Shown here one piece after another: positions 33,352-63,564 of a stretch of 64,000 nt of DNA; position 1 is the first letter of the stretch, and each line of letters starts with the position of its first letter. The stretch spans positions 10,771 through 74,770 of IMG/VR virus record IMGVR_UViG_3300049060_000085; one strand, given 5' to 3'. The notes under the pieces were generated by a model that saw only the letters and a program-made list of their open reading frames with translations, had not been told where the DNA came from and did no database searches. A program made the translations under genes and the position numbers. This stretch comes from a virus.

Positions 33352-33379
33352 GGGTCACCCGTTCTCCAGGCACCTCAGG

Positions 33380-33640: not shown

Positions 33641-33670
33641 CGCGTCACCTCAGAGATGTGTGAGACGAAA

Positions 33671-33701
33671 CGTGGAAAGCGCGCGCACCGCGCTTTCCAC
33701 G
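33671..33701 (-). terminator. intrinsic terminator after 33715-34146
   Basis: CGTGGAAAGCGC/GCGCTTTCCACG 12-bp stem followed by TTTCGT on - strand. Confidence 0.7.
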
Positions 33702-33714
33702 CGCGTTGTTGACG

Positions 33715-34146
33715 TCACACGCTGTCGAACGAGTGCACGAGCGCGCCGGTCGCGAAGCTCGCGGTGTTGCCGTTGTTCACGACCTGCGAAGCGGTCAGCG
33801 CGGCCGAACCGATGAAGTCCGCAGCCGTTGTTCCGGAAATCGTCTTCCAGAGCCCAAAGTGCGTGATCGTGCCCCAGTTGGCGCTCGCCGTGGTGAACGT
33901 GAACGCCTGGTTGTTCGCGATCGTCGACGGGTCAGCCGTGGTGGCCGCTGCCCAAAACGTCGTGTTGCACGTCGCGGTGTAGCGGGCGTACGAGCCGCCG
34001 CTGACTTCGTTTGCCGTTTGACCGTCGGCACCGGGGTCGCCGGTGTGAAGCGACACGAAGACAGCCGTCGCCGGCGCCGGCGCTGTGCCGCCTCGAAAAA
34101 TGTACTCGTTGATTGCTTTTCTGTAGGTGTTGCCGAAACCAGACAT
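33715..34146 (-). CDS. small virion/tail protein (Gp80-like family)
   Basis: VFVSLHTGDPG..NEVSGGSYAR..FTTASANWGTITHFGLW..GNTASFATGAL. Confidence 0.8.
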   Translation of the reverse strand: MSGFGNTYRKAINEYIFRGGTAPAPATAVFVSLHTGDPGADGQTANEVSGGSYARYTATCNTTFWAAATTADPSTIANNQAFTFTTASANWGTITHFGLWKTISGTTAADFIGSAALTASQVVNNGNTASFATGALVHSFDSV

Positions 34147-34160
34147 CTCCTCGAACCGTT

Positions 34161-34172
34161 CTCATCCCGGAG
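34161..34172 (-). promoter_or_regulatory. late motif CTCCGGGATGAG, copy 1
   Basis: 14 nt upstream of ATG 34146. Confidence 0.7.
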
Positions 34173-34191
34173 AAAGGTTGCTCACAATCGA

Positions 34192-34572
34192 TCACAGGTT
34201 GCTGCGGTAGCGCTTGAGCACGCCATCAGCGCTTTTTCGGATGACGCGGAACGTCGCCTCTTTGTCGGTGATCCAAAAATGCTCGGCCACGCCCGCGAAC
34301 AGAGGCCAGCTGACGCTGGCGGATGCCGAGGGGTTGCCGCCCGTGCTTGGCAGTCCCGAGGCGAAATGGATGTAGCAATCCACATCGCAAACGAACGTCA
34401 CCCAGCACCCGCCGATAGGAATGCCGCTGGGGAGCGTGGTTGTCGCTCCCGTGGAGACCGATGTGACGCTGGTTGCATCGACTACCGCGAGAGGATCCGT
34501 CGCCCCGTCTTCGTACGTGGCAGTGGACGCATGCGGCGCCCTGCGCGCGATGGCTCCTGATTGTCCAAGCAT
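34192..34572 (-). CDS. putative virion protein
   Basis: GGAGGT SD; beta-rich. Confidence 0.7.
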   Translation of the reverse strand: MLGQSGAIARRAPHASTATYEDGATDPLAVVDATSVTSVSTGATTTLPSGIPIGGCWVTFVCDVDCYIHFASGLPSTGGNPSASASVSWPLFAGVAEHFWITDKEATFRVIRKSADGVLKRYRSNL

Positions 34573-34586
34573 AGCGCGACCTCCGT

Positions 34587-35009
34587 TCAGCTAGACCACG
34601 CGCAGATGGTTGCGGCCACTGACACGGTTCCGCCGCCGCTCGTGAACGTCCACAAGGGCCGCGCGTAGCGAGGGAAACTTGTGAAAGTCAGCACGGCCTC
34701 GGTTGTGCCGATGCCAAGGTTGTTGAATGTCAGCAGGCCTGTGGTGCTGCTGAATGTGATGCCGGATGCGAGCACGCTCGCGGTGCCGGAGTTCACGATG
34801 GGAAGCGCGATGGCTTGATCGGCCGCGCGGTTCTCGTCGTTGGTTCCACCCATTCCGAACGTGGCTTGCAGCGTCGCCGCGGTCACGGTGACGACCAGGC
34901 CCACCGACACGTGGCTGCAGTTGGCGATCTTGATCGTGCGGCCGATCTGCGTCCCGCTCGAACCGAGCAGCGCCACCTCTTGTACTAGGAAGTCTTTTCT
35001 GTCTGCCAT
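34587..35009 (-). CDS. beta-sandwich virion protein, tandem paralog 3
   Basis: shares NC..V, SGITF, F..F.R...FTSGGGT, W with 35023-35856. Confidence 0.8.
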   Translation of the reverse strand: MADRKDFLVQEVALLGSSGTQIGRTIKIANCSHVSVGLVVTVTAATLQATFGMGGTNDENRAADQAIALPIVNSGTASVLASGITFSSTTGLLTFNNLGIGTTEAVLTFTSFPRYARPLWTFTSGGGTVSVAATICAWSS

Positions 35010-35022
35010 GACACAACCTCTT

Positions 35023-35433
35023 TCAGGTGGACCAGCCAGAGATCGTGACCTTGTTGGAGATCGTGCCGCCGCCGCTTGTGAAGGTGAACACGGGGCGCAC
35101 GAAGCGCGTGAACGCGCTGTAGGCGACGGTGATTTCCGCGGTGGCCGCGGCGCCCGTCGCGAACGTCACAGCGTTCGAAGCGAACGTGATGCCCGAAGGC
35201 AACGCGGTGATCGCCGTGCCGCCGGTGAGCACGGGGAGCGCCACGGAAGTGTCGAGCGCGCGGTCGGCGTCGTTGGTGCCGGTGAGCGTGAGCGTTCCGA
35301 CCAAGTTGATCGCGGACGTGGTGATGACGATGGTCATCAACACCTTGTCGCAGTTGGTCACCTTGACCGCGCGACCGGTCTGCGTTGCGCCGACGCCCTC
35401 GAGGGCCACTTCAGATACCGAAAAATCAGCCAT
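35023..35433 (-). CDS. beta-sandwich virion protein, tandem paralog 2
   Basis: NCDK..LPVLTGG..PSGITFASNA..FTSGGGT..GWST. Confidence 0.8.
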   Translation of the reverse strand: MADFSVSEVALEGVGATQTGRAVKVTNCDKVLMTIVITTSAINLVGTLTLTGTNDADRALDTSVALPVLTGGTAITALPSGITFASNAVTFATGAAATAEITVAYSAFTRFVRPVFTFTSGGGTISNKVTISGWST

Positions 35434-35445
35434 AAATCCTCACTT

Positions 35446-35856
35446 TCAAACGGACCAAGCGCCGAGCGTGGCGCGAACATCGACAGTGCCACCGCCGCTC
35501 GTGTAGTCGTACACAGCGCGGACCCATGCGGGAAAACTCGAATAGGCGATCGTGACTTCGTACGTACCGATCGCCGGGTTGTTCAGCGTGATCGCGTTGC
35601 TTGCGAAGGTGATGCCGCTCGGGGCGGCGGTGATAAGCGCGCCGGTTGTGAGTACGGGCAGCGTGCTGGTCGGCTCGAGCGCTGTAACTGGGTCGCTCGT
35701 GCCGGTGAGCGCGATCGTAGCCTGAAGCGTGGCCGCTGTCACCGACAGCGTGATGGTCAGCGTGAGCTTGTCGCAGTTGCTGACCTGCACGGTGAGTCCG
35801 GACACGTCGGCGTCGGAGCCGGCGAGCACGGGTTGGCTCTTGAAAATGTCGGTCAT
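35446..35856 (-). CDS. beta-sandwich virion protein, tandem paralog 1
   Basis: NCDK..LPVLTTG..PSGITFASNA..YTSGGGT..GAWSV. Confidence 0.8.
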   Translation of the reverse strand: MTDIFKSQPVLAGSDADVSGLTVQVSNCDKLTLTITLSVTAATLQATIALTGTSDPVTALEPTSTLPVLTTGALITAAPSGITFASNAITLNNPAIGTYEVTIAYSSFPAWVRAVYDYTSGGGTVDVRATLGAWSV

Positions 35857-38279
35857 GCGTTACTCCGCTGAATCTGAGGTGCGTAGATCTGCTCTACGAA
35901 GATGGGATCTGTGCGCACGAGCCGCTCTGTCACAGCCGCGCGCGCGTCGTCGGTCCGAGCCTTGTTGTAGTCGTCCGCCCAAGGCATGAACGCGCTCGGG
36001 TTGGCCTTCATGGAAGCGGTCGTGTCGCGACCAAGTGTCATGCCGGCGGGCATGCCTTGCAGCGAAGACGTGGGCCCGTTCGGGTCTTTTTCGTCTGCAG
36101 CCGCTGGCGGCGGCGACGGCGGGCGGAACCCATCCCGGATGGCAGCGGCTTCGGCGCCGACGGGCATCCGCGCCTTTTCGCTGACGCGCTCCATCATGTC
36201 TGCGGTGTCGCCGCTCAGCCACTGAGCGTGGATGGAGTGCTTGCGCGGCTGGTACCAATGGTTGACCGCCATGCCGGCGCCCGCGCCCAGCGCGCCCAAC
36301 CCGCTTGCCCCAAGTGCGCCCGCGCCGAGGCTGTATGCGAGCCCGCCGCCGACGCTTCCGAGCGCAGAGCCCAGGGCACTGTTGCGCACGTCGAAGAATG
36401 GAGGGGCGTCGTGACGCGCGGAGCTCGCTTGGTCGCGCAGGAGGTTGAGCGTGCCCAAGTGCGCTTTCGAGTCCGCCCACTGCGTGGCCAGCTCCGGATC
36501 GGCGCGCTCCGCGCCAAGGTCCATCGCGTGATCGATGGCCGCGTAGCGCTCGCGCGCAAACGCGTCTTCAGGCTTCGCGAGCTCAGGCCTGATCGGCTGA
36601 CCTGCCTTGTTGAGCTCGTCGAGGTACGCGTTGAACGGCACGGGCGCAGGCCCGAGGTCTGCCATGGGCGCAGGCGCAGGCGCTTGGGCGCCGAGTCCGC
36701 GCATCCACGCGTCGGGATCGACAGGCGTTGCCGGTGACTGATTCGCAACCGGCAACGGCGGAGGCGGCAGAGCTTGTGCAGCCATTGGCGGTGGCGAAGC
36801 CTGTGCGGCGAGCGCGCCGATGGGATCGCCCACCACGGGCGCAGGAGATGCGCCCAGTGCTCCGAACGCGCTGGACTCGGGCGAAGCGCCAAGCAGCGAT
36901 CCAAACGCCGATGCCGGCGCCGGGGTGGGCGGCAGATTGGGTGCTGGGGCAGCGCTGGGCGGCGGCGTCATCGTTGGCAACGGAGGAGGCGCTGGCGGCA
37001 CCTGCTGCGGGCCGCCGGCGGCCGCCAGGGCCCCAACGGGATCGGGAGCCGGGGGTGCGGCTTGCACCGGTGACACGCGCTCGACTGGCTCCATGATGCG
37101 ACCGCCTGGGATGCCCATGCCGGAGTCCGCGTAGCGCTGCGCGATCGCGTCTGCGCCCGCCACATAGTCGGACGACAGTGGAGCGCCGTAAGCGGCCGCG
37201 GGGCTGCGCTCGCGAACATCCGCGCGAAACTTGTCGTGGATGTCCATCGGGTCGACGGTGGCGCCGCCCTGCGTCAGCGCTTCGACGGCCGCGTCCTTCG
37301 CGAGTCGCGCCTCGTCTCGAGCGCCTTGCACCGACGACGCCATTTCCGGCACCGTGTACGAGCCGCCGCGCTCGCCAGCGATGCGTCTGATTTCACTAAG
37401 GACGTTGCCGTATTTTTCCGGCTGCGCCGCGAGCTCGTCGATCGCCTTGTCGTCGTAGCCCGCGCTGCGCAAGAATTCATGATCGGCGTCTTGCGCGCGC
37501 AGCGCTCGGGCTTCAGGCGTGGCCTGACGCGCGGCGCTTCTTGCCGCCGCATTGCTTACCAGCGCGCCCGGCAACGCAAACGCGGCCGTGGCAGCAGCTC
37601 CGAGTTTGCCCGGCGCTTCTACCTGTCCTGTGTCGCCGTACTGACGCACAGCGTCCTCGCCGGCGCCGATCGCCATCTGTTCGCCGACTTCACCCAACAC
37701 GCGCCCCACCCCGGGCTTGATGAAGCGCGCAGCTGCAGCGATCTTGTTGACGGGACTCGCAAATGAGCCCACGAAATCGCCTGCGGCAAAGAGCGCCGGA
37801 TTGTCGCGCTCAGCGTCCATGCTCCACTGACGCACGGGTGCCGCGGCGTCGATCATCTGTCCAGCCGCGCGGTCGAGCCCAGCCGTGTACCCATGCACAC
37901 CGCCCGCGACCATGCTGCCGAGCGCGCGCGGTGCGCCGCCGTAGTCCGTGGGCTGCATGGTGGAGGCTTGCGCCGAAAACCCTGTGGGGTCCTCGCTGCC
38001 GCCGAGTAGACCGCGCAACCAGTCGCCGCCGCTCGGAGCTTCGGGCGTGGCTTCGCGCACCTCAGTCATGTTGAGCGAGCGACCAAGCGGCTTTTCGCTG
38101 CGAATCACCTCGGGCGTGCCCACGGTCATCTCAGCTTGCGGAGCTTCGCCCGCGTCGACCTCTTCGTCGTCGACACTCGTCGGAGACAAACCCTTCTTGT
38201 CCATGTCGTCCATGAACGCATCGAGCTTGTCTTCGGGGATGTTGAAGGTGCGCCCTTGTACTTTCCAGCGGGTACCCAT
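35853..38279 (-). CDS. internal virion/ejection protein (Pro-rich centre)
   Basis: 808 aa, Ala/Gly-rich helical, third large gene after nozzle. Confidence 0.7.
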   Translation of the reverse strand: MGTRWKVQGRTFNIPEDKLDAFMDDMDKKGLSPTSVDDEEVDAGEAPQAEMTVGTPEVIRSEKPLGRSLNMTEVREATPEAPSGGDWLRGLLGGSEDPTGFSAQASTMQPTDYGGAPRALGSMVAGGVHGYTAGLDRAAGQMIDAAAPVRQWSMDAERDNPALFAAGDFVGSFASPVNKIAAAARFIKPGVGRVLGEVGEQMAIGAGEDAVRQYGDTGQVEAPGKLGAAATAAFALPGALVSNAAARSAARQATPEARALRAQDADHEFLRSAGYDDKAIDELAAQPEKYGNVLSEIRRIAGERGGSYTVPEMASSVQGARDEARLAKDAAVEALTQGGATVDPMDIHDKFRADVRERSPAAAYGAPLSSDYVAGADAIAQRYADSGMGIPGGRIMEPVERVSPVQAAPPAPDPVGALAAAGGPQQVPPAPPPLPTMTPPPSAAPAPNLPPTPAPASAFGSLLGASPESSAFGALGASPAPVVGDPIGALAAQASPPPMAAQALPPPPLPVANQSPATPVDPDAWMRGLGAQAPAPAPMADLGPAPVPFNAYLDELNKAGQPIRPELAKPEDAFARERYAAIDHAMDLGAERADPELATQWADSKAHLGTLNLLRDQASSARHDAPPFFDVRNSALGSALGSVGGGLAYSLGAGALGASGLGALGAGAGMAVNHWYQPRKHSIHAQWLSGDTADMMERVSEKARMPVGAEAAAIRDGFRPPSPPPAAADEKDPNGPTSSLQGMPAGMTLGRDTTASMKANPSAFMPWADDYNKARTDDARAAVTERLVRTDPIFVEQIYAPQIQRSNA

Positions 38280-40178
38280 TCAGCGCTCCTCGTAGTCTTC
38301 CCAGTCGGTGAGGTCGACGGCTTCGATCGGCACGCTCGGCACCGGCTGAACACCGAGATTGTCGCCAGCGTCACCGCCCGAGCTCGTGCTGGGCGGTCTA
38401 TTGGACTGCTTCTTTGCGGCCTGCGGGTGAACATCGTCTAGGCTGCCCTCGGCTCCAACCGCTGCGGGCGCAGCGCTCGGCTGCAGATGTCCGAGCCAAC
38501 GTTTGGGATCTCGAATGTTGCCACCGGCCAACGACTGCGCGGCCAAGTCTGGCGCTGCCGCAGCGGCGTTGCCGAGCTGTGAAGTCAGCCGCGAACGAAG
38601 GATCTTCACCGAGTCTTTGATGTCTTGGAGCGTGGCCATCGGGCTCTGGGCGCTGGCGATGGCGGCGCGCATCTCTTCGCGCTCGTTGCCGCTCGCGCCC
38701 GTGTCGATGCGGTACACGCTTTCGGCAAGTCGGTTCAGGAGCTTGCGGTTGTAGTCGGCTTCGGCTTGGAACTTGTTGTACTCGTCATCACCGACGAGTC
38801 CCGCGATGCCGCGCAGCGCCTGCCCCAACGGGTACTTGTCTGCACCTTCTTTGAGCTGCTCGATACCGAGCCCCGGAGGCAGTTTTTTGGCTCGCTCCGC
38901 AGCCGCGATCACATCGTCGAGCTCGTCTACGAGCGACGCTGTGTCGATCTGCTTGGTGTGCTTGTTCCCGTACTCGGTGATCCAAGCTCGGTTTTTGTCT
39001 TCTTTGCGCGCTGTAGCAGCATCTGTACGGGCGCCTTCAGCGGCGGCGGTGCGACGCCTGGCCTCTTCCAAAGCCTCTCGCTGCAGCTTGTCGGCTGCGA
39101 TTTGATCGGGCGTCTGCGGCTTCGTTCCAAGCTGCTCGGCCTCGGCTTTGCGCCGCGCCGTTTCCGTGGTGTAGACGGTGTCGGCCTTGGTGTCTTTGGC
39201 CGCGTTTTCGGCTTCGATCGTGCCCGTCGCGCGACCCGCGGCCTTGACCTCTTCGGCGTGCCCGGCCTTTTGGACCATCGGCTCCGAGAGGTTGTAGTCG
39301 CGTCGGAACGACGGCATGGCTTGCGCCCAACCCTTGTCGTCGAGTCCCGCCGCGGCTTCGATCTTGGCGGGGTCCGCGCCGTTGAGCTTCATGAGCTCGA
39401 GCATCGCCGCGCGACTGCCTTTGCTGGCCTCCGCCGCAAGCGCATCCTTGGTGGCCTTGCTCGCAGCGGTTTGAGTCAGTCGCCCTTCACGGCCCTGCGC
39501 GGTCTGAATGCGCTGCATCGCCAGCATCTGGTTGACCGGATCGCTGTGCGCGCCGCCGGTCATCAGCTTGCGCCGGCCCTCCTCGAAACTGCGCTTGTCC
39601 GAATCGGCCTGTTGCAGGATGCCAGGGATCGAGCGGCCTTTGTTGAGGGCCACATCCACGAGGATCGCCCAGCCGTTGACGCCCGGAGCGCCGCGCTTGT
39701 CGTACTCTTCGAGCTGCCTGCGCTGCATCTCCTGGCCGCGCAGCATGAGCGCCTCGAACGGATCTTGTGCAGGCGGCGGTTCGGTCTTCGCCGTGCCCTG
39801 CCCAGGGTTTGTGAGCTCTTTCATCTCAGGGCTCGCACCTGCGCTGTCCACGCCCTTGGTGGGTGCCGCTCCGAGCGGCGGAGTCTCGGGCGCCGCGGGT
39901 GCCTCAGGCGACTCGGGCGCGAGCTCCATGGGCTCAGGCTCGGGCATCGGCTCGGGCAGGCTCATCGAAGCAAGCGCGGAGACGGCGCGATCGGCCGGCG
40001 GCTCGGGAACGGGCTCCATCTGGAACTCGGGATCGAGCGCGAGCCCGCCGGGCGACATGGCAGAGTCTTCGGGCGTGCTTTGCGCCGCGAGCGCCGCGAG
40101 CGCGGCGGTGCGCCGGCGCTCCTCTTCGTCGGGGTCGTAGCCGAGCAGATTGCTTTGAAGCTGGAAGTCCATGATCAC
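38280..40178 (-). CDS. internal virion/ejection protein
   Basis: 632 aa, charged coiled-coil. Confidence 0.7.
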   Translation of the reverse strand: MIMDFQLQSNLLGYDPDEEERRRTAALAALAAQSTPEDSAMSPGGLALDPEFQMEPVPEPPADRAVSALASMSLPEPMPEPEPMELAPESPEAPAAPETPPLGAAPTKGVDSAGASPEMKELTNPGQGTAKTEPPPAQDPFEALMLRGQEMQRRQLEEYDKRGAPGVNGWAILVDVALNKGRSIPGILQQADSDKRSFEEGRRKLMTGGAHSDPVNQMLAMQRIQTAQGREGRLTQTAASKATKDALAAEASKGSRAAMLELMKLNGADPAKIEAAAGLDDKGWAQAMPSFRRDYNLSEPMVQKAGHAEEVKAAGRATGTIEAENAAKDTKADTVYTTETARRKAEAEQLGTKPQTPDQIAADKLQREALEEARRRTAAAEGARTDAATARKEDKNRAWITEYGNKHTKQIDTASLVDELDDVIAAAERAKKLPPGLGIEQLKEGADKYPLGQALRGIAGLVGDDEYNKFQAEADYNRKLLNRLAESVYRIDTGASGNEREEMRAAIASAQSPMATLQDIKDSVKILRSRLTSQLGNAAAAAPDLAAQSLAGGNIRDPKRWLGHLQPSAAPAAVGAEGSLDDVHPQAAKKQSNRPPSTSSGGDAGDNLGVQPVPSVPIEAVDLTDWEDYEER

Positions 40179-42208
40179 CCGCCGTAACGCTTGCGAATGG
40201 CCGCCGCGTCTTCTTCTTCGCTGTTTTGGCCGATGCCGAATCCACCCAGCAGGCCGTTGCGCGAGCCGATGATCGGCAGACCGAAGATGCCCGTGCTATC
40301 GGCACGGTGTTGCGCGCTGTTGGCTGCGAGCGCTGAATCAAGCGCCGCTTTCTGTGCCGCGACACCAGCGATTTCGACTTGGTTATTCCCAAGCAGCTGG
40401 TTGGTGGTCCAGCGCGAGTTGTCTGTGCCCATGCCCGCCAGTAGGTTCTGCTGCGCTTGGTTCGTGTTGTTCGTGTTGATTTGCGCGCCCTGCACACCGA
40501 GTCGTCGGTTGAGCTGATCGTTCTCCAAACCGTTGCCCACGCCGCCAACAGCCATGTTCGTGCGCACGCCTTCCGCGTCGCGCAGGTAGTTCTGGTTCAG
40601 CACGCTGGTGGTGCCGTTGAAGATGTTGCTGGCGTTGTTGCTGTTTTGCGCGCTGGCATTGAGCTCGAGGCCAGACAGGTCCGTGGTGCGTCCCCACAGC
40701 GCATCGCGCTCGCGCTGTCTGAAGAGCTCGTTGAAGCTGTCCACGTTGTAAGCGTCGTCCTGCATCGCATTGGCCTGGTTGCCAGACGCGATCTGACCGC
40801 TGAGCCGTGTTTGCTGGTTGTTCGCGCTGGCCGTGTCGGCCGCAACGCCGCGCTTGTAGGCCTGGTCGAAGCTCGACTGCTGTGCGGTCTCAGCACCTTG
40901 CTCGTACATGCCAAGCGCTTGCAGCTGACGATTCGCGTTGCCCGTGGCAAGCGCGTTCGCTTCGCTGTTCAGTTGCGTCCCGAGCTGACCTTGCAGGCGC
41001 AACATGTCTTGCGATCGCGCCACGGCTTGTGCGCTCGCGGCGAGGTCCGAAAGTACGCGCTGCTGTGCGATCTGCTGGCTGCCCAGCGCGCCGAGTGTGA
41101 GCTCTGCGCCGCCGCCCGCCATACCGCGACGACGAAGGTTGCTCATCTTGGCGCCGTCGAGCGCGCGCTGGTCCATCTCCCAGCCCTGGCGAGCCTTCTC
41201 GTAGAGGAAGTTCTCCGCGTCCGTGACCGCGGGGTTGGTCAGCGCAGAAGCCTTGTCCAAGGCCTCCATCGCCGCCGCGTAGGCCTTGGGGTCCTCCTGG
41301 CCTACGTGGACATCCTTCGAGCCCTTGCTGACGTCGTAGAGGTCGGCAAGGCCTTGGTCGCGCATGGCGACGTAGCGCGGGTCCGCGTAGGCGCCAGCGG
41401 CCTGGGATTGGTAGTCGAGCGCGCCGTTGGCGGTGCCTTGGAGCTGGCTGAGCGCTTGCTGTTGCGCTGCCCAGGCCTCGGGGTTGAGGGCGAGCTGGCT
41501 CTCCAGCGGCGTGGCCAGCTGATCGTACATACCTTGCGCGCGACCGATGGTGGCGTCGTTGCGCGCGCTTAGGTCGTTGAGCGTGTTGGTGTAGCTGCCA
41601 AGCGCGTCGAGCGAGCCTTGGTTGGCCGTGCCGCGCGCGGCGTCCAGCTTGCCGGCTTCGCCGCGCAGCATGTCGATGTAGGCTGCGTTTCGCGGATCCT
41701 GCGCGTTGATCAGATTGTTCATCTGGTCGAGCGCGGCCTGGTTGTTCTGGTTCGTTCCCTTTGAAAGCTCTTCGAGGCGCTGAAGCGCCTCGTCGTTTTG
41801 CTGCGAGGTGTTGTTGATGAGGTCGCGGTTTTGTTTGAGTATCCGCTGCTCGGGCGTGAGGTACGCGGTGTCGCCGCCGCTCTGCTCGTACGCGCGTTGC
41901 GGCGCTTGTTGCGCGATGGGATTCGCTTTTTGTTCAGCAAGGCCCTTCGCGATGTACGCCTGCTGCTGCTCGGGCGTCATCGAGTTGAAGAGGTAGGTGC
42001 CGAAGTCCGACGCCATCAAATCGCCGGTGTAGCCAGCGGCTTGATCCGAGGGGCCTTGTGCAAAAGTCTCGGTGGTTGCCGAACGCGGCGGCGGCAGCAC
42101 CGCGCGCGACTGCGCGCCGGCATTGGTCGGCGGAGGCGCGCTCGACCTAACAGCAGCCGCGGGGACCCACCGCTGGGAAGCTTGATCCCATACAAGATTT
42201 TCAGGCAT
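40175..42208 (-). CDS. internal virion/ejection protein (Q/N/A/G-rich)
   Basis: 677 aa, composition typical of podovirus pilot proteins. Confidence 0.7.
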   Translation of the reverse strand: MPENLVWDQASQRWVPAAAVRSSAPPPTNAGAQSRAVLPPPRSATTETFAQGPSDQAAGYTGDLMASDFGTYLFNSMTPEQQQAYIAKGLAEQKANPIAQQAPQRAYEQSGGDTAYLTPEQRILKQNRDLINNTSQQNDEALQRLEELSKGTNQNNQAALDQMNNLINAQDPRNAAYIDMLRGEAGKLDAARGTANQGSLDALGSYTNTLNDLSARNDATIGRAQGMYDQLATPLESQLALNPEAWAAQQQALSQLQGTANGALDYQSQAAGAYADPRYVAMRDQGLADLYDVSKGSKDVHVGQEDPKAYAAAMEALDKASALTNPAVTDAENFLYEKARQGWEMDQRALDGAKMSNLRRRGMAGGGAELTLGALGSQQIAQQRVLSDLAASAQAVARSQDMLRLQGQLGTQLNSEANALATGNANRQLQALGMYEQGAETAQQSSFDQAYKRGVAADTASANNQQTRLSGQIASGNQANAMQDDAYNVDSFNELFRQRERDALWGRTTDLSGLELNASAQNSNNASNIFNGTTSVLNQNYLRDAEGVRTNMAVGGVGNGLENDQLNRRLGVQGAQINTNNTNQAQQNLLAGMGTDNSRWTTNQLLGNNQVEIAGVAAQKAALDSALAANSAQHRADSTGIFGLPIIGSRNGLLGGFGIGQNSEEEDAAAIRKRYGG

Positions 42209-42559
42209 TTATCCCACCACCAAAAGCCGGATGGTTGCGTAGCGCTCGCCCGCGGTGAGCCCGCCGATCTTCACGTTCACGGAGGCGCCGTCGAAGCCGA
42301 GTTGCGGAACCGCGTCCACCGACTGCCAGGAGCCGTCCGCTTTTTCGACGTAGGTCACCACGGCGCCGTGCGGTCTGCGCGACGACGCAAACACGAAGCC
42401 TTCGGTCTGATAGACCTGATCGGAAAACTCCACTTCGCGCAGCGCCGGCGCGGTTGAAATCACAGAGTCGAGGTTGCGGAGATTTTCGCCGACCTCACGC
42501 CCGTGGACTTCGTCCTCGGACCAAACGCGCTTGCGAATAGGCCGTTTGATGCTGCTCAT
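42209..42559 (-). CDS. small virion protein
   Basis: coupled to nozzle gene. Confidence 0.7.
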   Translation of the reverse strand: MSSIKRPIRKRVWSEDEVHGREVGENLRNLDSVISTAPALREVEFSDQVYQTEGFVFASSRRPHGAVVTYVEKADGSWQSVDAVPQLGFDGASVNVKIGGLTAGERYATIRLLVVG

Positions 42560-45219
42560 CGCCGGGCCCTGTCCGTGGTGAAGTTGATGTAGTTGACGCT
42601 GAAGGCTTCGAGCGTCACGGGCGAGTCAGAGCTGTGCGCGCCAATGAACAGCGAGAACGCGAACACGTTGCTCATCGCGGGGAAGTTGCGGCTGACCACA
42701 AACGAGAGCCGCGCGCTCTCCCCGTTGGGGCTGCCTGTCACCTGCGGAAGAACGCGTGCCGTCTGCACGCCCGAAGCGCCCGTGCCGCGCAGCGTGATGG
42801 TGCACGTGCTCGAAGGTTGCGGCGTCTTGAACGAGAACTGGATATCTTGCCAGTGCTTGACCGTGTGCGGCGCCGTCGCGCCGCTGCCGAAGATCGGCTG
42901 AAATACGATGGCCGCCTCTTCGAGCTCGTTACTGACGTTGCTCGGGACGTGGATGTTCTGGCGCCCCGAAAACACCGTCCACATCTCTTGAAGCTTTGGG
43001 TGATAGACGCCCGCCGTGGGGATTTCGCGCGGGCTGTAGAGCGTGGGAATGCGTATGCAAAACGTGTCGGTCTTCGTGTTGTAGACCCAGATTTGCTTGG
43101 CGTTGGTCTCCCACGCGCCCGTGCGGATCCAAACGTCGTCGTTGGATTGATCCGCTTCGAGCCACACGGTGGCATCGTTGGTGCCGTTGCTCGCGATCTG
43201 CGTCCACGTGCGGTTGGGCAGTTTTCCGGTGGTGCTCGCCGAAGAAGGGTTGATGCGGCCGTCCGAAAGCTCGCGCACCTGACCTTCGCTGCTGATCGAT
43301 ACGAACCCGCGGTTGGTGTACGCGTAGACGTATTCTCGATGCACGCACGCGGCTTGCGGATTCATGATCACAAGCGTCGGGTCCACCGGATCGAGCACCC
43401 AGTCGTAACCCTCGCCCACGGAGCCGCCCGCGCCGCTCAAGCGAAAGAGCCCGTCGCTGCAGAAAAACCAGAGACAATCGCGCGTGGCGATGACGCGGTG
43501 AATGTCGCCCTGTCCCGCGAACTCGTAGTTGGACGGTGGACAGTTTTCGGGCTCGTTGTTCTCGCTCCACGCATAGCCATTCGGCTGTGGCGTGGGCTTG
43601 ATCGTGAGCACTGTGCTCGCGATGTCCGGCAGGATGGGCGAGAAGTTCCCGCCGTTGGTCGCGCGCAGCGTGATGTTCGCGTTCGTGCGCATGCGAATGC
43701 GAAGCCCGCCCGTGGGCGTGAACGAGGGATAGGCGCTCGTCACCGCGATGGAAGCTTGCGGCTCCAGCGCGATGGTCGTGATGTCGCCGTCCGTGTTGAA
43801 GCCGGCGGTGATAACGTTGTCCGCAAACTCTTGCGCGGACGTGCCGACGCCATAACGCACGCCATTGAGCTCGATCACGTCTTCGGCGACCACCGTCACT
43901 GAGCCGGTGTAAGTGCTCTGCACTGTGGAAGTGACCGTGCTGGCGGTCTTGGAGACCACCTGACCAGCCATCACCTGCGCGCCGGTGTCGGTGCGGAAAA
44001 AATAGAGGTTTTGACCGACCGAGATGCCGTCTGTGGAGGGAAACGGAGCGCCGCCCGTGAGCCCCGAAGCCGTGACGCTTCCGTTGCTGGCAGACGCGCC
44101 CGTCCACGTGCGGTACCCGATGCCGTAGGCTTTGATCGACTGCTGCGCGGTGGAGGGAATCGGGCCCCAGAAATACGGGTTGAGCAGCGTCACGGTCGCG
44201 GGGTCTAAGCGGTTGGCGTAAAACGCGTGCCCGCGAAACACCGCACATGTCTTCGAGGGAACAGGCGGAAGCGGCAGCGCCGTCGCGCCGTCCTTGGCCA
44301 CGTTCGTCAAGAGCGCTTCACCAAGCGCTTTGCCCATCACCGCATCGCTGATGGTGGTGGTGGCGCTGTTGACGTCTCCGGTTTGGCTTCGGTAGAAACT
44401 CGAACCGCAAGCGATGGGCAGATACTTGTTGTTGATCGAGTCGTAGCCCACGCTCTGCGAGCGCGTGTGGTAGATGTCGACCTTGTACTCGTGCTCGGAC
44501 GATAGGATCGGCCGCGTTGTGCGCACGCTCCATGAGTTAGAGCTGATCGCTTGCGTTGTGCTGAGGTTGGCGAAGTCGCCCAGCATGGCGGGCGGAGAGA
44601 GCAACTCGTACCCATCCGTGTGGATCTGACGCAAGACGGCGGTCGCTGTCATGTGCGTGTTCGCGGGCAGCGGACCGCTGACGTCGTCGTCGGCCAGCGA
44701 GAAATTGCGGTCTGTGATGACCGGTTGGTACACGCCGCAGTTGCGCGGCCCGCGCACCGCGGAGAGCGCGCCCGAGCTGTCTTCGATGAAGTCGATGGCG
44801 AACGATCGAACCGAGCCCGCGATGATCAACCGGTTGCGCATGAGCAACACGGCCGTGCGCATGTCGTTGGTGACATACGAAGTCCACGGCGAGCCCAGTG
44901 CGATTTCACTCGCGGTGATCGTGCCGGTTGATTCGTTGTACCAGTAGTAGCAAACCCGCCAGGCTCCTGCGGAGTTGAACTCCCCGAGCACCACAGTCAG
45001 GTTGCCTTCAGACAGCATGTACACGCCGCCGGCGACGGTGACGCCGACGCCCAATCCGTTGAGCGTGTAGCTCGTGGACCACTTTGGAAGCTGCTCGACC
45101 GCGCCGAACGAACGGATGGCGCAGTTGCTCGCGAACGCGAACGCGCCCGGCGGATACTGCCCGACCTTATTAGGTTCGCTGATGATGCCTTGGGGCTTGG
45201 CTACGAGCTGTTGGCTCAT
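42556..45219 (-). CDS. tail nozzle / tail tubular protein B (P22 gp10, T7 gp12 analog)
   Basis: 887 aa, beta-rich, N-terminal GIISEPN..PPGAFAFASN; position after adaptor. Confidence 0.7.
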   Translation of the reverse strand: MSQQLVAKPQGIISEPNKVGQYPPGAFAFASNCAIRSFGAVEQLPKWSTSYTLNGLGVGVTVAGGVYMLSEGNLTVVLGEFNSAGAWRVCYYWYNESTGTITASEIALGSPWTSYVTNDMRTAVLLMRNRLIIAGSVRSFAIDFIEDSSGALSAVRGPRNCGVYQPVITDRNFSLADDDVSGPLPANTHMTATAVLRQIHTDGYELLSPPAMLGDFANLSTTQAISSNSWSVRTTRPILSSEHEYKVDIYHTRSQSVGYDSINNKYLPIACGSSFYRSQTGDVNSATTTISDAVMGKALGEALLTNVAKDGATALPLPPVPSKTCAVFRGHAFYANRLDPATVTLLNPYFWGPIPSTAQQSIKAYGIGYRTWTGASASNGSVTASGLTGGAPFPSTDGISVGQNLYFFRTDTGAQVMAGQVVSKTASTVTSTVQSTYTGSVTVVAEDVIELNGVRYGVGTSAQEFADNVITAGFNTDGDITTIALEPQASIAVTSAYPSFTPTGGLRIRMRTNANITLRATNGGNFSPILPDIASTVLTIKPTPQPNGYAWSENNEPENCPPSNYEFAGQGDIHRVIATRDCLWFFCSDGLFRLSGAGGSVGEGYDWVLDPVDPTLVIMNPQAACVHREYVYAYTNRGFVSISSEGQVRELSDGRINPSSASTTGKLPNRTWTQIASNGTNDATVWLEADQSNDDVWIRTGAWETNAKQIWVYNTKTDTFCIRIPTLYSPREIPTAGVYHPKLQEMWTVFSGRQNIHVPSNVSNELEEAAIVFQPIFGSGATAPHTVKHWQDIQFSFKTPQPSSTCTITLRGTGASGVQTARVLPQVTGSPNGESARLSFVVSRNFPAMSNVFAFSLFIGAHSSDSPVTLEAFSVNYINFTTDRARR

Positions 45220-52448: not shown

Positions 52449-54734
52449 TCACTGCATGGCGCCCGCCGGTGGCGAGCTTGGCTGAGGAAGCGGTGTGCCG
52501 TTGCCAGACGCGCCGGTAGGGCCTGCCACTTGCCCCGAGACGTCTCCGCTGTTCTGCATGGTGGCCTGGTCGCTCGGCGCCGCCTGCGCGCTTAGACCGC
52601 CGTCTGGCGGCTGCGCGCCGGGCATGCCGCCACCGCCCTGCGCTGGGTTGGCAGCGCCTGAGTTGGCGCCCTGCTGCTGCGGCTGCCCGAGACCTTGCAG
52701 CTGGCCCGTGGCCAGCATGAACTCGAAGGTCATGTTGCCGCGCGGCGCCATCGGATTCGGCACGATCGGCGGAGGCGGGGGGATTTGCTGGAACTGCGCG
52801 ACCAGCGGGTTGAGCTGCAAATACGCTTCCGTGTGCGCCTGCAGGTGCAACCGCACGCGCATGATCGCCTCCAGGTCGGGGACGTCCGCCGCCATCAACT
52901 GCTCCAGCATGGCGTTGTGGAGCGGCCAGTGCTTGAAGGGGTTGTCGCCGGGCATGACGGGCACGAGGCCTTCGCCGGTGACCAGGCGCTCGTTTTCCTT
53001 GCGGATGAGCATCTCGGCGCTGTTTTCGGTCTTGAGCCAGCGCGTGGTGTTGCCGGTGGTGACCATCTCGTAGGTCGCCGCGCGATCTTCATCGGGCATG
53101 TTGCGCAGCGCGGTGGCGATTTGCAGACGGCCTGCGGTCGACTGCATGAGCGGGCTGATTTGCTCGATGTCGACGCGCTGCACGCCGGACAAGTCTTCCT
53201 TGGTGAACTCGGCGACGTACGAGCGCTGCTCGATGCCGGCGATGTCCACCAAGAACGGCGTTTCGCCGTAGCGCGTGATGAGGTCTAGGATGATTTGCGC
53301 GCCGTCGATGCGGAACTTGCGCGCGGCGTCTTGGCGGAACGATTGGTAGCGAATCGCGATGCTGTCGAGCAGCGCGTTCATTTCTCCAGAGCGGACGTTG
53401 GGGTCCGGGTCGCCGCGGCTGGCCGCGTTCTGACCGGAAACCGTGTCCAGCATCTTGTGCAAATAGCTTTTGAGATCCGGAAGCGTCGCCGGTACAGCAG
53501 CAAGCTGCACTGCTTTCGGCATCTGGGCGTTGGGAGGGACGTAAAACGCAGTACCTTGAGCGAGCGCATCGAGGGTGACCTCAGTGCCCTTCTCTATCGC
53601 GATGCTTTGACGACCAAAGGTCGCGTAGTTTTGCATTTCATCGCTGTTGACCTGGTTCAACGCTTGCTGAATCGCGATGAGGTCCCACGCATCCGCATAC
53701 CCAAACGTCGACTCGATGAAGCGTCCCGACTGCATCACCGCGATGGGCAAGCCACGTTTGCGCGGACACGGGCCGTCCCAGAGAATCACGTCACCCGCCA
53801 TCATCACGTAGCGGCCCTCGGGCACCGCGGCGCAGCGACGGTGATAGAAGTGCTTGACGGTGAGCTGGTCCTTCGAGCTGTAGTAGAGCTCCTCGAGGCG
53901 AAAGAGCGTGCCGAAGTCGTACCGGTCGTAGTCGGTTTTGACCGCCAAAAGCTCGTCACGCTTCGCCGGGAAGTTGGCGATCAAGTTCCAGCGGTTATCC
54001 AGCTCGCGGACCATGCGCCACTGGTGCTCGCCGGCGACCCGCGGCTCTTGAACAAGCGCCCACGGGTACACCACGGTGACGATGGGCTCGCCCGACTTCT
54101 CGATCGAGAAATGCTGCGCCGTGGTGCCGTCCTCCAGCTGGATGTCACGCGGCACCTTCATGTCGTCGCCGCCGAGGAAGTCCCAGCGGTAGTGCGTTGC
54201 GCCGAGGCCAAAGACGCCGTCGCCCTCCGCGGCGTCCATGTCGAGCGGCGCGCTGTAGCGCTTGTATAGCGAGTTGATGATCTTGTCGGTGAGCACGCTC
54301 TTCGCAAACGAGCGGTGGTCGCTGTTGCTCACAAGCGCCTTGAACGCTGCAGGCTCACCCAGCGCCAAAGACGTCTGATGTCGGATGTACGGGCGAATCA
54401 GGTTCAGGTGAAAGCGCAGAAGCTCCAGCTCGTTGCCACTGAATCCGATCGTCTGCGTCGCGAAGTCGCGCAGGTCGTCCGGCGTCAGGCCGTGGTGGGC
54501 GGCGTAGGCCACGACCCACATCGCAAGCAGGCCGCGGTTACGCGCGCTCTCGAAGAAGGCCTCTTCTTTGGCTTTGATCTCCGAGATGAAGTCCGGTCCC
54601 GACTTGCGCGCCCAGTAAATCTGGGACGGGTCGATGACCGGCTCTTCTTCCGGGTCGATAGGCCGAAGCGGGTCGCTGAGATCGGAGGCAGCGCCGAGCT
54701 GATCGAATGGAACTACGTTTTCTTGACCCAACAC
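52449..54734 (-). CDS. portal protein
   Basis: 761 aa between TerL and scaffold; LNLIRPYIRHQ..GEPAAFK, QQALNQVNSDEM, Q/P/G-rich C-terminal barrel. Confidence 0.85.
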   Translation of the reverse strand: MLGQENVVPFDQLGAASDLSDPLRPIDPEEEPVIDPSQIYWARKSGPDFISEIKAKEEAFFESARNRGLLAMWVVAYAAHHGLTPDDLRDFATQTIGFSGNELELLRFHLNLIRPYIRHQTSLALGEPAAFKALVSNSDHRSFAKSVLTDKIINSLYKRYSAPLDMDAAEGDGVFGLGATHYRWDFLGGDDMKVPRDIQLEDGTTAQHFSIEKSGEPIVTVVYPWALVQEPRVAGEHQWRMVRELDNRWNLIANFPAKRDELLAVKTDYDRYDFGTLFRLEELYYSSKDQLTVKHFYHRRCAAVPEGRYVMMAGDVILWDGPCPRKRGLPIAVMQSGRFIESTFGYADAWDLIAIQQALNQVNSDEMQNYATFGRQSIAIEKGTEVTLDALAQGTAFYVPPNAQMPKAVQLAAVPATLPDLKSYLHKMLDTVSGQNAASRGDPDPNVRSGEMNALLDSIAIRYQSFRQDAARKFRIDGAQIILDLITRYGETPFLVDIAGIEQRSYVAEFTKEDLSGVQRVDIEQISPLMQSTAGRLQIATALRNMPDEDRAATYEMVTTGNTTRWLKTENSAEMLIRKENERLVTGEGLVPVMPGDNPFKHWPLHNAMLEQLMAADVPDLEAIMRVRLHLQAHTEAYLQLNPLVAQFQQIPPPPPIVPNPMAPRGNMTFEFMLATGQLQGLGQPQQQGANSGAANPAQGGGGMPGAQPPDGGLSAQAAPSDQATMQNSGDVSGQVAGPTGASGNGTPLPQPSSPPAGAMQ

Positions 54735-55712: not shown

Positions 55713-55788
55713 TGGCTCCAAGGGCAGGGTTCGAACCTGCATAGTCCCGGTTAACAGCCGGGCGCACGACCATTTGTACTACCTTGGA
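55713..55788 (-). tRNA. tRNA-Asn(GUU) with encoded CCA
   Basis: acceptor TCCAAGG/CCTTGGA-G-CCA; anticodon arm CCCGG-CT-GTT-AA-CCGGG; T-arm GCAGG-TTCGAAC-CCTGC. Confidence 0.93.
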
Positions 55789-56758: not shown

Positions 56759-58597
56759 CTATCTGCGTCCTCGGCCACCGTCGTAGAGCTTGAGTCGGCC
56801 GCGCTGGTGGATGCCGTGCGCCGCGTTCTGGGCGTGCTCGAGGGCGAGCTCGTGCGGAGCCTTGGGCATCCAAGGCAGGCGTTCGATCACGGTGACACCG
56901 GCGGGGAACTCACGGAGAATGTGCTCGGGGGGGTGGGGCCGAGAATTCGTATACTGCTCGACCTTACGCACCATGTAAACGAGCGCCGAGGCCAAGTCGA
57001 AGTGTCCGTAGACCTCGTGTTCAGCTAGTTTTCCGCGTTTGTCGCGCTTTGCCGAATGCACGTGGTCGATGACCGCACCCGCGTGGGGGGAGAACCACAT
57101 CCGGCCCTCGCCGAGCCAGTTACGGACGTTGCGAATCATGGTGGTGAGCTCTTCCTTGGTGGTCGCCAAGAACTCGAGCCCGTAGTGCTCGTCGATGTCG
57201 CGGATGAGCTGCTTGTCGACGTCGCTCACGCGCGCGGCGGGGTTCAGGTGAAAGCCTTGTCGGTCGTAGTACGGGGTGATCGCACCGGGGATGGGTTTGA
57301 TGATCCAATCGCCTGGGCGTCGCTCGCTTGTGGGGCGATCGACGAGCGGGGTCGTCGCCATGCGATGGAGCTCGGGTGCTAGCTTTTCGTACTTGTCGCC
57401 GTGAAGAAGGTCGCGCCATCCAGCGTGGACGCCGTCGTGCTGCGCAGGGATTCGGCGCATACGAACGTCCGGCCACCGACCCCAAAGCACGAACTCGCGT
57501 GCTGCGCAGACAGCGCTGACTTCCATGGACCCTGCATTCGATTTGGCCCATGAATCCAGGATAAGTAGTCGGTCAGCGTCAAAGTCATACTCGCCCCAGA
57601 TAAGCCCGAATAAGTGCACTTGGCCAGGGTCTGCGGCGACAAACCCATACGCGTGCTTCGGCCTTTCGAAGTGGCGTACGTGGAGCTCGCGGGTGAACTC
57701 GGGGAAGGCTTTGAGGGCTGGGTCGCCGGCAATGATATTGAAGTATTCGCGCTCGCAGTTCGGGTTGCCGCGCCCGCCTGCCATGCCGATCCAGTAGTCT
57801 TTTTCGCGCCGGGTGAGCTTCGAGTTGTCCTCGATCGTCACCTCTGCGAATGCGCCGCGCCGTTTGGCGTCGGGCATCACGATGCGCTCCCAGTCCGTGT
57901 CTTGGTCCTCGGGCGCCGAGCTCTCCACCATCATGCGCGCCCAGGGGCGCTGCTGGTATTGGTGGATGAGGACGTTTCGGACCGCGTAGTCCAGATTGCT
58001 GATGAACGCTGCTTCGGAGACGAAGTCGAAGTCGTTCTCCTGGCCGCGCAGGGCGTCTTTGTTGACGTCGATGCCCGCGAGCGCGAGCCGTGCGCCGCCG
58101 GTCGGACCATCTTCGGGCCAGTACAAGCCGGCGGGGAGGATACCGCGCTTGCCGTGGTAGGTCGGCACCGCGTAGTCGGGCGCGGTGCTAAAGGCCTGCG
58201 TGACGACCGAGCCTGCGATCTCGTCGATGTTGCGCTGGAAGGCGCTCGTGAGGCGCATCTTGGCGGGTCGGCCGTATTTGCGGAAATACCAGACCGCAAT
58301 CTCGTACGCGACCCACAGGTACAGCGTGGTTTTGCCGAAGCGCTTGCCGCCCGCGATGACGAAAATCAGCGGGATGGAGCCGGTCTCGTGGACCTCCTCG
58401 AGCTGGTCGATCTCACGCCAGGCGTGGATCTGATTTCTCAGCGCGAGCTGCCCCGAATGCATGAGGCCGGAGAGGTCTCCGGTCTCCCATGAGAGGGCGA
58501 TGAGCTCCTCGTCTGTAAGCGCGTCGAGGTCAGCCTCGGTGAGCTGCTTTTCGAAGACGAGGGCGTCGGGGTCGTTTTCTAGGTCGTCAGGGTACAA
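56759..58597 (-). CDS. terL: terminase large subunit
   Basis: AGGKRFGKT Walker A, LRGQEND.DFVSEAAF Walker B region, ESSAP coupling motif, VAADPG nuclease Asp, GHFDLASALVY. Confidence 0.9.
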   Translation of the reverse strand: MYPDDLENDPDALVFEKQLTEADLDALTDEELIALSWETGDLSGLMHSGQLALRNQIHAWREIDQLEEVHETGSIPLIFVIAGGKRFGKTTLYLWVAYEIAVWYFRKYGRPAKMRLTSAFQRNIDEIAGSVVTQAFSTAPDYAVPTYHGKRGILPAGLYWPEDGPTGGARLALAGIDVNKDALRGQENDFDFVSEAAFISNLDYAVRNVLIHQYQQRPWARMMVESSAPEDQDTDWERIVMPDAKRRGAFAEVTIEDNSKLTRREKDYWIGMAGGRGNPNCEREYFNIIAGDPALKAFPEFTRELHVRHFERPKHAYGFVAADPGQVHLFGLIWGEYDFDADRLLILDSWAKSNAGSMEVSAVCAAREFVLWGRWPDVRMRRIPAQHDGVHAGWRDLLHGDKYEKLAPELHRMATTPLVDRPTSERRPGDWIIKPIPGAITPYYDRQGFHLNPAARVSDVDKQLIRDIDEHYGLEFLATTKEELTTMIRNVRNWLGEGRMWFSPHAGAVIDHVHSAKRDKRGKLAEHEVYGHFDLASALVYMVRKVEQYTNSRPHPPEHILREFPAGVTVIERLPWMPKAPHELALEHAQNAAHGIHQRGRLKLYDGGRGRR

Positions 58598-60638: not shown

Positions 60639-61571
60639 TTATTCGCGCGGCGTGTGGACAATCGGAAGTCCGCGACCCACGCTCGGCCGTGCGAGATGCG
60701 GATTGCGGCTCATCCAATCCTGGACGAACCACAGCTGTCCGCATCCACCCCCGATGTCGTCTTGGCCTGCGGGGTCGAAGCAGCGGGTGCTGTAGCCGCG
60801 CGCGGTGAGTTTGGCCATGAAGCTTTGCGCGAGCTCACGCTGACGCGCGTTCGCCGCCGCGACATGCTCATCGCGCTCGCACACCACGCTGATGGTGGCC
60901 TGCCAGACCTCTGGGCTGAAGTACGTCTCCAGCATGTCCGCGTCGCCATCGGCGCTGTTTTTGTCGTGCGCGCAGTAGTTGAAGAACGGTTGCCGGCCCG
61001 TGGCTTCAGCCCAGCGCTCGCCCTCGTCTGCGATCTGACGAAGCGTCATCTTGTTCTTGAACGGGATGAGCACGTCGCGCTTGTCGTTGGTGGTTTCGTG
61101 CACCGAAAACTGCAGCCCGATCGTCGGGATGTCTTGTGACAAACCACGCAACTCTTCGAACGCTTTGGGTACGAGTGGTCCGGTCGTGCTGATGAGCAAC
61201 GCCGCGCGCGGGAAGATGTCGCCAAGGCGCAACAACGTTTCCTTGAGTGAGGCCCAGTTCAACATCGGCTCGCCCATCGACATGAACATGATTTGCCAGC
61301 GCTTGATGGTCTCAGGGTCGATGAATCGATCGGCGAGCATGTACACGACCTGCTCACAGATTTCGTCGGCGCCGAGGCTGCGCACGAAGTTGTCGCCCGC
61401 GCCGCAGAACCGACAGCCCACCGGGCAGCCGCTTTGCGTGCTCACGCACATCACCGTGCGCTCTTCGTAGGTGGGGTATTTGTAGAGCACGCTCTCCGCT
61501 ACGGCGTTGCCGAAGTCGTAGACGTACTTGCTCACGTTGGTGTCTGAAGAATCAATACGCTGCACATGCAT
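60639..61571 (-). CDS. RlmN/Cfr-family radical SAM methyltransferase (N-terminally short form)
   Basis: MCVSTQSGCPVGCRFC (CxxxCxxC plus C118 equivalent), FMSMGEP, QFSVH, DIGGGCGQL (C355 equivalent). Confidence 0.92.
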   Translation of the reverse strand: MHVQRIDSSDTNVSKYVYDFGNAVAESVLYKYPTYEERTVMCVSTQSGCPVGCRFCGAGDNFVRSLGADEICEQVVYMLADRFIDPETIKRWQIMFMSMGEPMLNWASLKETLLRLGDIFPRAALLISTTGPLVPKAFEELRGLSQDIPTIGLQFSVHETTNDKRDVLIPFKNKMTLRQIADEGERWAEATGRQPFFNYCAHDKNSADGDADMLETYFSPEVWQATISVVCERDEHVAAANARQRELAQSFMAKLTARGYSTRCFDPAGQDDIGGGCGQLWFVQDWMSRNPHLARPSVGRGLPIVHTPRE

Positions 61572-62930: not shown

Positions 62931-63151
62931 GGTGCCGGCTCCCAATCTTCGTCGCGTGCTTCACGTGCGCCAATGAGCAAGATTTTCTGCTCGCCGAGCT
63001 CAGGTGAAACGCGTGCGCCGATCTCCGATTTTAGCGTGGCCCAAGGCCCATAGCCGCCGTTCACGAGGTAGAGCTCGAGCACGTCGCCCGTAGCCCAATG
63101 CGGCTTGCGCAGTCGCGAGACGCCGGTCTTAGCTGCTTCCGAGATGTTCAT
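62927..63151 (-). CDS. hypothetical protein, weak Tad2/DUF2829-like outline
   Basis: MNISEAAK.G..RLRKPHW..LELYL..GPW..DEDWEP. Confidence 0.65.
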   Translation of the reverse strand: MNISEAAKTGVSRLRKPHWATGDVLELYLVNGGYGPWATLKSEIGARVSPELGEQKILLIGAREARDEDWEPAP

Positions 63152-63564
63152 TATATCTGTCCTTCGATACGGAAATCTGGGGTGGGATCGCCGTCGACGC
63201 AGTGCCACAGATGCAGGCAGTATTTGGCGATGTTGACGTGTTCGGACGCGCGCGGGAAGACCTGCACGGCCATGCGCTCGTCACCGATGAATGACCGCTT
63301 CACCCAGCACATGTCTTCGTAGCTGGGCACACGCGCAGGCCGCGAAAACGAGACGTGGACCCAGCGCTTGCCATCGGCATAAGCGCCGCCCGTGACGATG
63401 ACCATGAGCCGGTCGCTGATGTCGTGCGCGAGCTCCAGAAAGCGGTAGGGGACATACGGTTGCGCGCGTTTGATCCAGCCGATCGGCGTGACGTCCCAGC
63501 CGCCGAGCAGGAACCAGTCGGGCACTTCCGCGAGGTGGTCGCTCAGCTTCGCTTCTTGGGTCAT
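63151..63564 (-). CDS. conserved phage protein (WxHVS..PSY..YCLHLW family)
   Basis: RWVHVSFSR..RVPSYEDMCWVKRSFIGD..QVFP..HVNIAKYCLHLW. Confidence 0.8.
   Translation of the reverse strand: MTQEAKLSDHLAEVPDWFLLGGWDVTPIGWIKRAQPYVPYRFLELAHDISDRLMVIVTGGAYADGKRWVHVSFSRPARVPSYEDMCWVKRSFIGDERMAVQVFPRASEHVNIAKYCLHLWHCVDGDPTPDFRIEGQI

Follow-up and report, generated by a model that had tools for sequence, protein, structure and literature searches.

The gene described here was found in a virus whose record is complete at 75,003 bp. Unless otherwise indicated, coordinates refer to the window, meaning the whole 64,000-nucleotide stretch of this record that was analysed. At positions 60639-61571 on the minus strand the window contains a complete ORF with an ATG start and a stop codon at 60639-60641, encoding a 310-aa protein (P0001) of the RlmN/Cfr-like radical SAM (rSAM) type without the N-terminal domain of those enzymes. 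A compact gene of this kind had been proposed for the position in an earlier note on this DNA, and its existence is confirmed by the ORF itself and by thousands of homologs at ~70% identity. The gene lies amid small unannotated genes of the minus strand, upstream of those for the terminase (56759-58597, minus strand) and the portal protein (52449-54734, minus strand). Large ORFs occupy positions 30862-45219 (minus strand), and a DnaB-like helicase is encoded at 20107-21468. Among the large proteins of the phage, the portal protein and the DnaB-like helicase were the only recognisable ones, with six of the ten having no PHROG family. No tblastn match to the terminase was obtained at 1e-10 in 50,697 phage records, nor did a DNA-level search of the isolated-phage collection return a match to this phage, and its lineage is consequently considered to be undescribed among isolated phages. 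A DUF7694 protein of 137 aa is encoded at window positions 63151-63564 (minus strand), 1.6 kb upstream of the rSAM gene, while in a sister 75-kb contig (L005) a DUF7694 gene is located 0.7 kb downstream of it, indicating that the local gene order has been shuffled between close relatives.

Residue equivalences were read from alignments of P0001 with the solved RlmN and Cfr structures and with a set of seven true RlmN sequences, and the features on which the earlier identification had been based (the cluster Cys triad, both mechanistic Cys residues, MSMGEP and SVH) were all recovered. The [4Fe-4S]-binding CX3CX2C motif is represented by CPVGCRFC (61404-61427, minus strand, as are all positions in this paragraph), with C49, C53 and C56 in invariant columns. 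C42 (codon at 61446-61448), within the sequence MCVS, aligns with RlmN C118 and Cfr C105 and is the predicted resolving Cys; it is kept in 92% of the family rows of the alignment and is missing, according to the motif table, from a few divergent members. The predicted methyl-carrying Cys, C277, equivalent to RlmN C355 and Cfr C338, is found in GGGCGQL (residues 274-280; 60732-60752), again in conserved columns. Residues 97-102 (61266-61283) form the family signature MSMGEP in place of MGMGEP, S98 standing for a Gly that is invariant in RlmN, and residues 156-158 (61098-61106) read SVH for SLH and align with the SAM-binding S212 and H214 of Cfr. The Cfr residues E91, C105, S212, H214 and C338, which are essential by mutagenesis (PMC2836569), correspond in the alignment to E26, C42, S156, H158 and C277 of P0001. 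Both mechanistic Cys residues and the SAM-binding residues are kept in nearly all members of the family. The Pfam Radical_SAM model scored 33 bits for P0001.

The statement in the earlier note that the N-terminal RNA-binding region of RlmN is missing was also borne out. Sequence and fold alignments of P0001 begin at RlmN residue ~65-75, leaving the N-terminal HhH2 domain absent, the alignment to TIGR00048 opens at model position 74, and a profile search for RlmN_N (PF21016) gave no match in the whole 75,003-bp genome. The stop codon of the upstream ORF is separated from the ATG of P0001 by 36 nt. An AlphaFold (AF2) model of P0001 (pLDDT 94.2, pTM 0.91) was found to keep the barrel and the beta-sheet extension and to lack the HhH2 domain, the nearest solved structures being RlmN (TM 0.72-0.74 in the structure search and 0.72-0.77 over all fold alignments) and then Cfr (TM 0.62). 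P0001 thus combines a CX3CX2C motif and two mechanistic Cys residues with an RlmN-type fold, the features by which class A radical SAM methylases are recognised, and as far as can be judged from residues and fold it is an intact methyl synthase of this mechanistic class.

P0001 is nevertheless an orthologue of neither RlmN nor Cfr and belongs to a separate family. The RlmN equivalog model TIGR00048 gave it 85.5 bits against a cut-off of 290, whereas true RlmN representatives from the same search reached 300-399 bits. With the Cfr models, the score was 82 bits for NF000424 (cut-off 530) and 74.5 bits for TIGR04432 (cut-off 550). A phylogeny of the kind proposed in the earlier note was built from 54 core domains by maximum likelihood. 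True RlmN proteins formed one clade in it (100/100), and P0001 was placed apart in the core MSMGEP clade, separated from RlmN by branches with 94/95 and 100/99 support. Five residues which are invariant in RlmN are switched in P0001, namely the Gly of MGMGEP (S98), the Ala of LAxSLH (Q154), the Glu of FEY (N198), the Asn of HVN (S228) and the Arg situated 11 residues before the methyl-carrying Cys (F265, codon at 60777-60779, minus strand). Column comparison indicated that all five replacements are invariant or nearly so within the MSMGEP family. The last of these positions is occupied in Cfr by R327, a residue in contact with the A2503 ribose (PMC13001441), and the S228 position probably, if tentatively, corresponds to that of Cfr N288, which contacts a phosphate (PMC13001441). 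The Cfr RNA-contact residues W101, S187, N208, T210, K250 and R327 align, respectively, to E36, L126, G152, Q154, Q194 and F265. Cryo-EM work has described a positive patch on the N-terminal domain as crucial for rRNA binding, and the HhH2 domain as crucial in both Cfr and RlmN (PMC13001441).

RlmN (TIGR00048; PDB 3RFA, 5HR7 and 6FZ6) is a dual-specificity methyl synthase forming m2A2503 in 23S rRNA and m2A37 in tRNA. P0001 shares with it the barrel with its beta-sheet extension, the CX3CX2C motif, the mechanistic Cys pair and the Glu, Ser/His and GEP motifs, and the chemistry is presumably alike. It differs from RlmN in the loss of HhH2, in its own clade with the five invariant switches, in the genomic setting of its family, which is that of NAD salvage and phages, and in being acidic (pI 5.3 and net charge -9, with a median pI of 5.5 across 119 close relatives). 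With Cfr (PDB 9P0P; cryo-EM complex, PMC13001441), the 23S rRNA m8A2503 methyltransferase of multidrug resistance, P0001 has in common the mechanistic class, the core fold and equivalents of E91, C105, C112/116/119, S212, H214 and C338. However, it lacks the N-terminal rRNA-binding domain, its fold is more distant, and the RNA-contact residues are mostly lost; nothing here suggests an antibiotic-resistance function for P0001. A small third subfamily with no assigned function is all that is noted by Kaminska et al. (2010), and a literature search found no description of the MSMGEP family.

A word-indexed search recovered 5486 homologs of P0001 at E <= 1e-10, the best 120 of which are all ~310 aa long and 67-74% identical and come from contigs of 1 to 360 kb. 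An exhaustive search gave 73 clusters (50% identity) at E <= 1e-30. The family is thus very large; it is spread by phages and keeps ~70% identity even between unrelated ones. P0001 is a typical member of it, with its core-clade placement, its MSMGEP signature, its length of ~300 aa without the N-domain and an identity of 62-74% to many other members. Carriers among isolated phages, at 62-66% identity, are Stenotrophomonas phages ANB28 and BUCTxx99 and Xanthomonas phage JGB6, and the gene is further carried by Salmonella phage Arash, seven Vibrio phages (~137 kb), Aeromonas phage Ahp1 and a 462-kb uncultured phage. Automatic annotation labels the family '23S rRNA (adenine2503-C2)-methyltransferase', probably a misnomer for thousands of proteins from phages and microbes. 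The rSAM gene was essentially the sole gene common to this phage and 18 cellular loci with close copies, and for this reason an inference of host or prophage from those loci was dropped; the family gene behaves as a single-gene cassette.

Variant forms were also encountered. Three metagenomic proteins of ~645 aa (P0274, P0276 and P0277) carry a LAGLIDADG-type intein inside the CX3CX2C motif, between the second and third cluster Cys; inteins typically occupy sites where functional constraint is strong. A recurrent fused form of 545 aa (P0272, P0273, P0275 and P0278) has an additional C-terminal domain of ~240 aa, which is weakly like class I SAM methyltransferases (Methyltransf_25, E 0.22). The N-terminal extensions of P0122, P0123 and P0125 had no Pfam match and are not RlmN_N. 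The genome of this phage holds one MSMGEP-family copy only. In one NAD-linked viral locus (L021), a divergent N-less RlmN-like paralog of 282 aa (L021:14686-15534, plus strand; CKMGCKFC; 111 bits with the RlmN model) is encoded downstream of the MSMGEP-family gene, at a distance of 3.8 kb.

The neighbourhood of the gene was surveyed in 77 IMG/VR loci with 10-kb flanks, in which 1982 neighbour ORFs were called and clustered. This clustering revealed no universal neighbour of the rSAM gene across the 77 loci, and the idea of a conserved partner gene was rejected, as the replication genes (primase-helicase, YqaJ) were confined to one related contig group. The sole neighbours recurring over diverse contigs were NAMPT (11 loci) and a NadM-type NMN adenylyltransferase/Nudix hydrolase (NadM-Nudix; 10-11 loci). 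In 12 of the 77 viral loci these genes adjoin the family gene in an operon-like manner, and in nine loci the rSAM gene shares its strand with NAMPT or NadM-Nudix and is separated from it by one small ORF at most. The gene orders observed were NadM-Nudix, NAMPT, (small ORF), rSAM; NadM-Nudix, rSAM, NAMPT; and rSAM, NAMPT. NAMPT overlaps the start of the rSAM gene by 4 bp in L021. A NAPRTase-family gene (NAMPT) was present in 16 of the 49 whole records carrying the rSAM gene; NARP2, the phage NAD+ reconstitution pathway, has been reported in ~1.1% of sequenced phages (Osterman et al., 2024, bioRxiv 10.1101/2024.02.11.579819). The two genes lie within 4 kb of each other (<=4 kb) in 9 of the 16 records with both, where 1.1 would be expected (Poisson-binomial P ~8e-8 with records treated as independent, although the loci are not phylogenetically independent). 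The complete genomes with both genes are all those of jumbo phages, which makes genome size a confounder, and around two thirds of the carrier records have no NAMPT. ARAGORN identified CUA-anticodon tRNAs (amber-suppressor type, labelled Pyl) at L010:14585-14658, L012:2824-2896 and L041:1984-2058, in three loci which carry the NAMPT/NadM-Nudix/rSAM block; these tRNAs may hint at TAG recoding in the phages concerned.

The same association was seen in protein fusions and in cellular genomes. Inside the core clade, P0132 is an rSAM-NUDIX fusion followed at once by NAMPT and NMNAT, and P0271, which is 62% identical to P0001, is a His_Phos_1-rSAM fusion. The phage 'phosphatases' of the aRES paper were considered as relatives of the His_Phos_1 partner and rejected, being Macro-domain enzymes. 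An HD/dGTPase fusion (P0201) was similarly rejected as evidence for a nucleotide substrate, because in the tree it groups with RlmN and not with the core family. Most telling is a Saccharibacteria copy, 63% identical to P0001, which stands in a clearly cellular setting (beside methionyl-tRNA synthetase and TatD) and in an island with the order NUDIX, PncB, PncA on one strand, His_Phos_1, rSAM on the other, then NrtR, NadE, and NMNAT. At a second Saccharibacteria locus, PncA and NMNAT are beside the rSAM gene. The His_Phos_1 partner is closest to the alpha-ribazole-phosphate phosphatase CobC, with a score under the cut-off; CobC is a phosphatase which acts on a small nucleotide. The Saccharibacteria NAD-salvage island is closed by an APH-family phosphotransferase of 308 aa with no NCBIfam name (L095:3269-4192, minus strand), which might be a candidate ribosylnicotinamide-type kinase.

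In the blocks of the 12 viral loci, the genes that the family gene accompanies, NadM-Nudix and NAMPT, are precisely those of NARP2 (Nampt plus Nmnat). The published pathway, however, has no radical SAM component (bioRxiv 10.1101/2024.02.11.579819), and the present phage has neither Nampt nor Nmnat. Indeed, no NAPRTase-family, NUDIX, NMNAT-type (CTP_transf_like), His_Phos_1 or flavodoxin gene was detected in its 75-kb genome. Same-genome linkage of the rSAM gene to NAD-salvage genes is a property of a minority of family members and is not seen in this phage, whose window holds an ordinary, solitary member of the family. A literature search found no radical SAM or RlmN-like enzyme tied to NARP, NrtR regulons or phage Nampt. 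The unidentified NrtR-regulated genes nrtX and nrtY (Rodionov et al., 2008) were considered as possible representatives of the family and could not be matched to it, as their identities are absent from the text.

The recurrent linkage to, and fusion with, NAD-salvage enzymes suggests that the target of the family is probably neither the ribosome nor tRNA. The reading that we favour, with a probability of about 0.45, is that P0001 is a methyl synthase acting on a small nucleotide of the NAD/ADP-ribose type, a substrate which we infer from context only. The new target suggested in the earlier note stands in so far as P0001 belongs to neither the RlmN nor the Cfr family and its target is probably new; the particular targets offered there, host tRNA or rRNA and adenine in phage DNA, are unsupported, the latter having no support at all, and the context is that of NAD instead. 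The course of the reaction can be proposed with high confidence from the conserved residues and the fold. C277 would take a methyl group from one SAM, and the [4Fe-4S] cluster on C49, C53 and C56 would generate a 5'-deoxyadenosyl radical by cleaving another SAM; this radical would activate the S-methyl group, the methyl would be added to an sp2 carbon of the substrate, and C42 would resolve the covalent intermediate. The MSMGEP family has lost the HhH2 RNA-docking domain and altered its RNA-backbone contacts, and its linkage and fusions suggest that it works in the NAD/ADP-ribose nucleotide pool. The substrate would most likely be a small nucleotide of NAD metabolism that contains adenine or pyridine, such as NAD, ADP-ribose or NMN/NaMN, and A2503 of 23S rRNA and A37 of tRNA would not be substrates. 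As the gene is a stand-alone cassette in this phage, its product would need host enzymes during infection. It is a more doubtful proposition that the whole family carries out a radical C-methylation, so far undescribed, on the adenine or pyridine ring of NAD, ADP-ribose, NMN or NaMN. This would be a hidden NAD-salvage step of Saccharibacteria and other reduced-genome microbes which phages have borrowed, possibly to maintain or remodel the NAD pool against its destruction by host immunity.

Several considerations count against an NAD-related substrate. NAD-salvage genes are absent here and in about two thirds of carriers, and genes that are linked have a context in common but need not have a substrate in common. 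The P0001 model keeps the beta-sheet extension, which in RlmN and Cfr forms a cradle for the target nucleotide. To our knowledge RlmN and Cfr, both of which act on RNA, are the sole characterised class A radical SAM methylases, and we know of none that acts on a small molecule. Class A methylases are also slow, and this suits RNA targets of limited number more than it does a pool of metabolites. A serious rival, although a somewhat less probable one, is an RNA adenine C2/C8 methylase that recognises its target without HhH2, the target being an RNA of the host or the phage such as 23S rRNA, the anticodon loop of a tRNA or some other hairpin. The proximity of NAD genes would then reflect no more than common membership of early or accessory gene islands, or the dependence of radical SAM enzymes on reducing power. 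The closest characterised relatives by sequence and fold are indeed all RNA methylases, with which P0001 shares its catalytic residues as well as the beta-sheet extension, and three copies of the gene only, those of Stenotrophomonas phage ANB28, L019 and L022, are embedded in tRNA arrays. A tRNA gene within 10 kb (<=10 kb), as seen in 16 of the 77 loci, was set aside as a clue to the target, since tRNA genes are common in large phages and their closeness to the rSAM gene is unspecific; the NAD genes, by contrast, are rare and yet tightly linked to it. An RNA target is also difficult to reconcile with the loss of the HhH2 domain from both protein and genome, with the acidic character of the family, and with the replacement of the conserved Arg and Asn that contact the ribose and phosphate of the target nucleotide; the placement of the gene in an NrtR-type island of a cellular genome would be hard to explain. 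The tRNAs of the phage itself do not provide such a target either. The tRNA-Gln(UUG) gene (27015-27088, plus strand) has G37 and the tRNA-Asn(GUU) gene (55713-55788, minus strand) has A37 after U36 (t6A class), neither being an RlmN-type substrate, while a third, tRNA-Phe(GAA), lies outside the window (genome C1:7519-7593, that is L105:7519-7593, plus strand) and has A37 after A36. In E. coli the m2A37 tRNAs are those for Arg, Asp, Gln, Glu and His with A37. The earlier remark that the phage tRNAs are not obvious substrates holds, because none of the three (0/3) is of the m2A37 type.

It is very improbable that the enzyme marks phage DNA against restriction by methylating a carbon of adenine, either in the DNA itself or in a deoxynucleotide precursor. 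There is general precedent for the modification of phage DNA, the RNA-docking domain is missing, and the phosphohydrolase-domain fusions could in principle fit a nucleotide-level pathway. However, no linkage to DNA polymerase, nucleotide kinase or dNTP-clearing genes was found in the 77 loci, the sole dGTPase-type fusion (P0201) lies outside the core clade, and a protein 63% identical to P0001 is present in a cellular NAD-salvage island. On grounds of established chemistry, a C2- or C8-methyl adenine would upset base pairing, and a slow enzyme consuming two SAM could not modify a whole genome. Somewhat less remote, but still unlikely, is a substrate connected with neither NAD nor nucleic acids, for instance a protein side chain or some other metabolite, or a chemistry other than methylation that employs the same two Cys residues. 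The extra C-terminal domain of the 545-aa form, with its weak likeness to class I methyltransferases, and the few divergent members without the resolving Cys would be compatible with this, as would the fact that the substrate has been assigned from context. The retention of the mechanistic Cys and SAM-binding residues in nearly all members argues against it, as does the fact that NAD salvage is the sole consistent genomic context.

The interest of the finding lies in the substrate of the whole family rather than in this one gene, and since mutation of the resolving Cys traps the covalent intermediate, the question of the substrate is directly testable. If the substrate is an NAD-related nucleotide, the family would represent a new cofactor chemistry and, in phages, would be a third component beside the NAD-reconstitution genes with which they counter NAD-depleting immunity. 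The Cfr-like fold in phages would in that case not be a reservoir of Cfr-type resistance.
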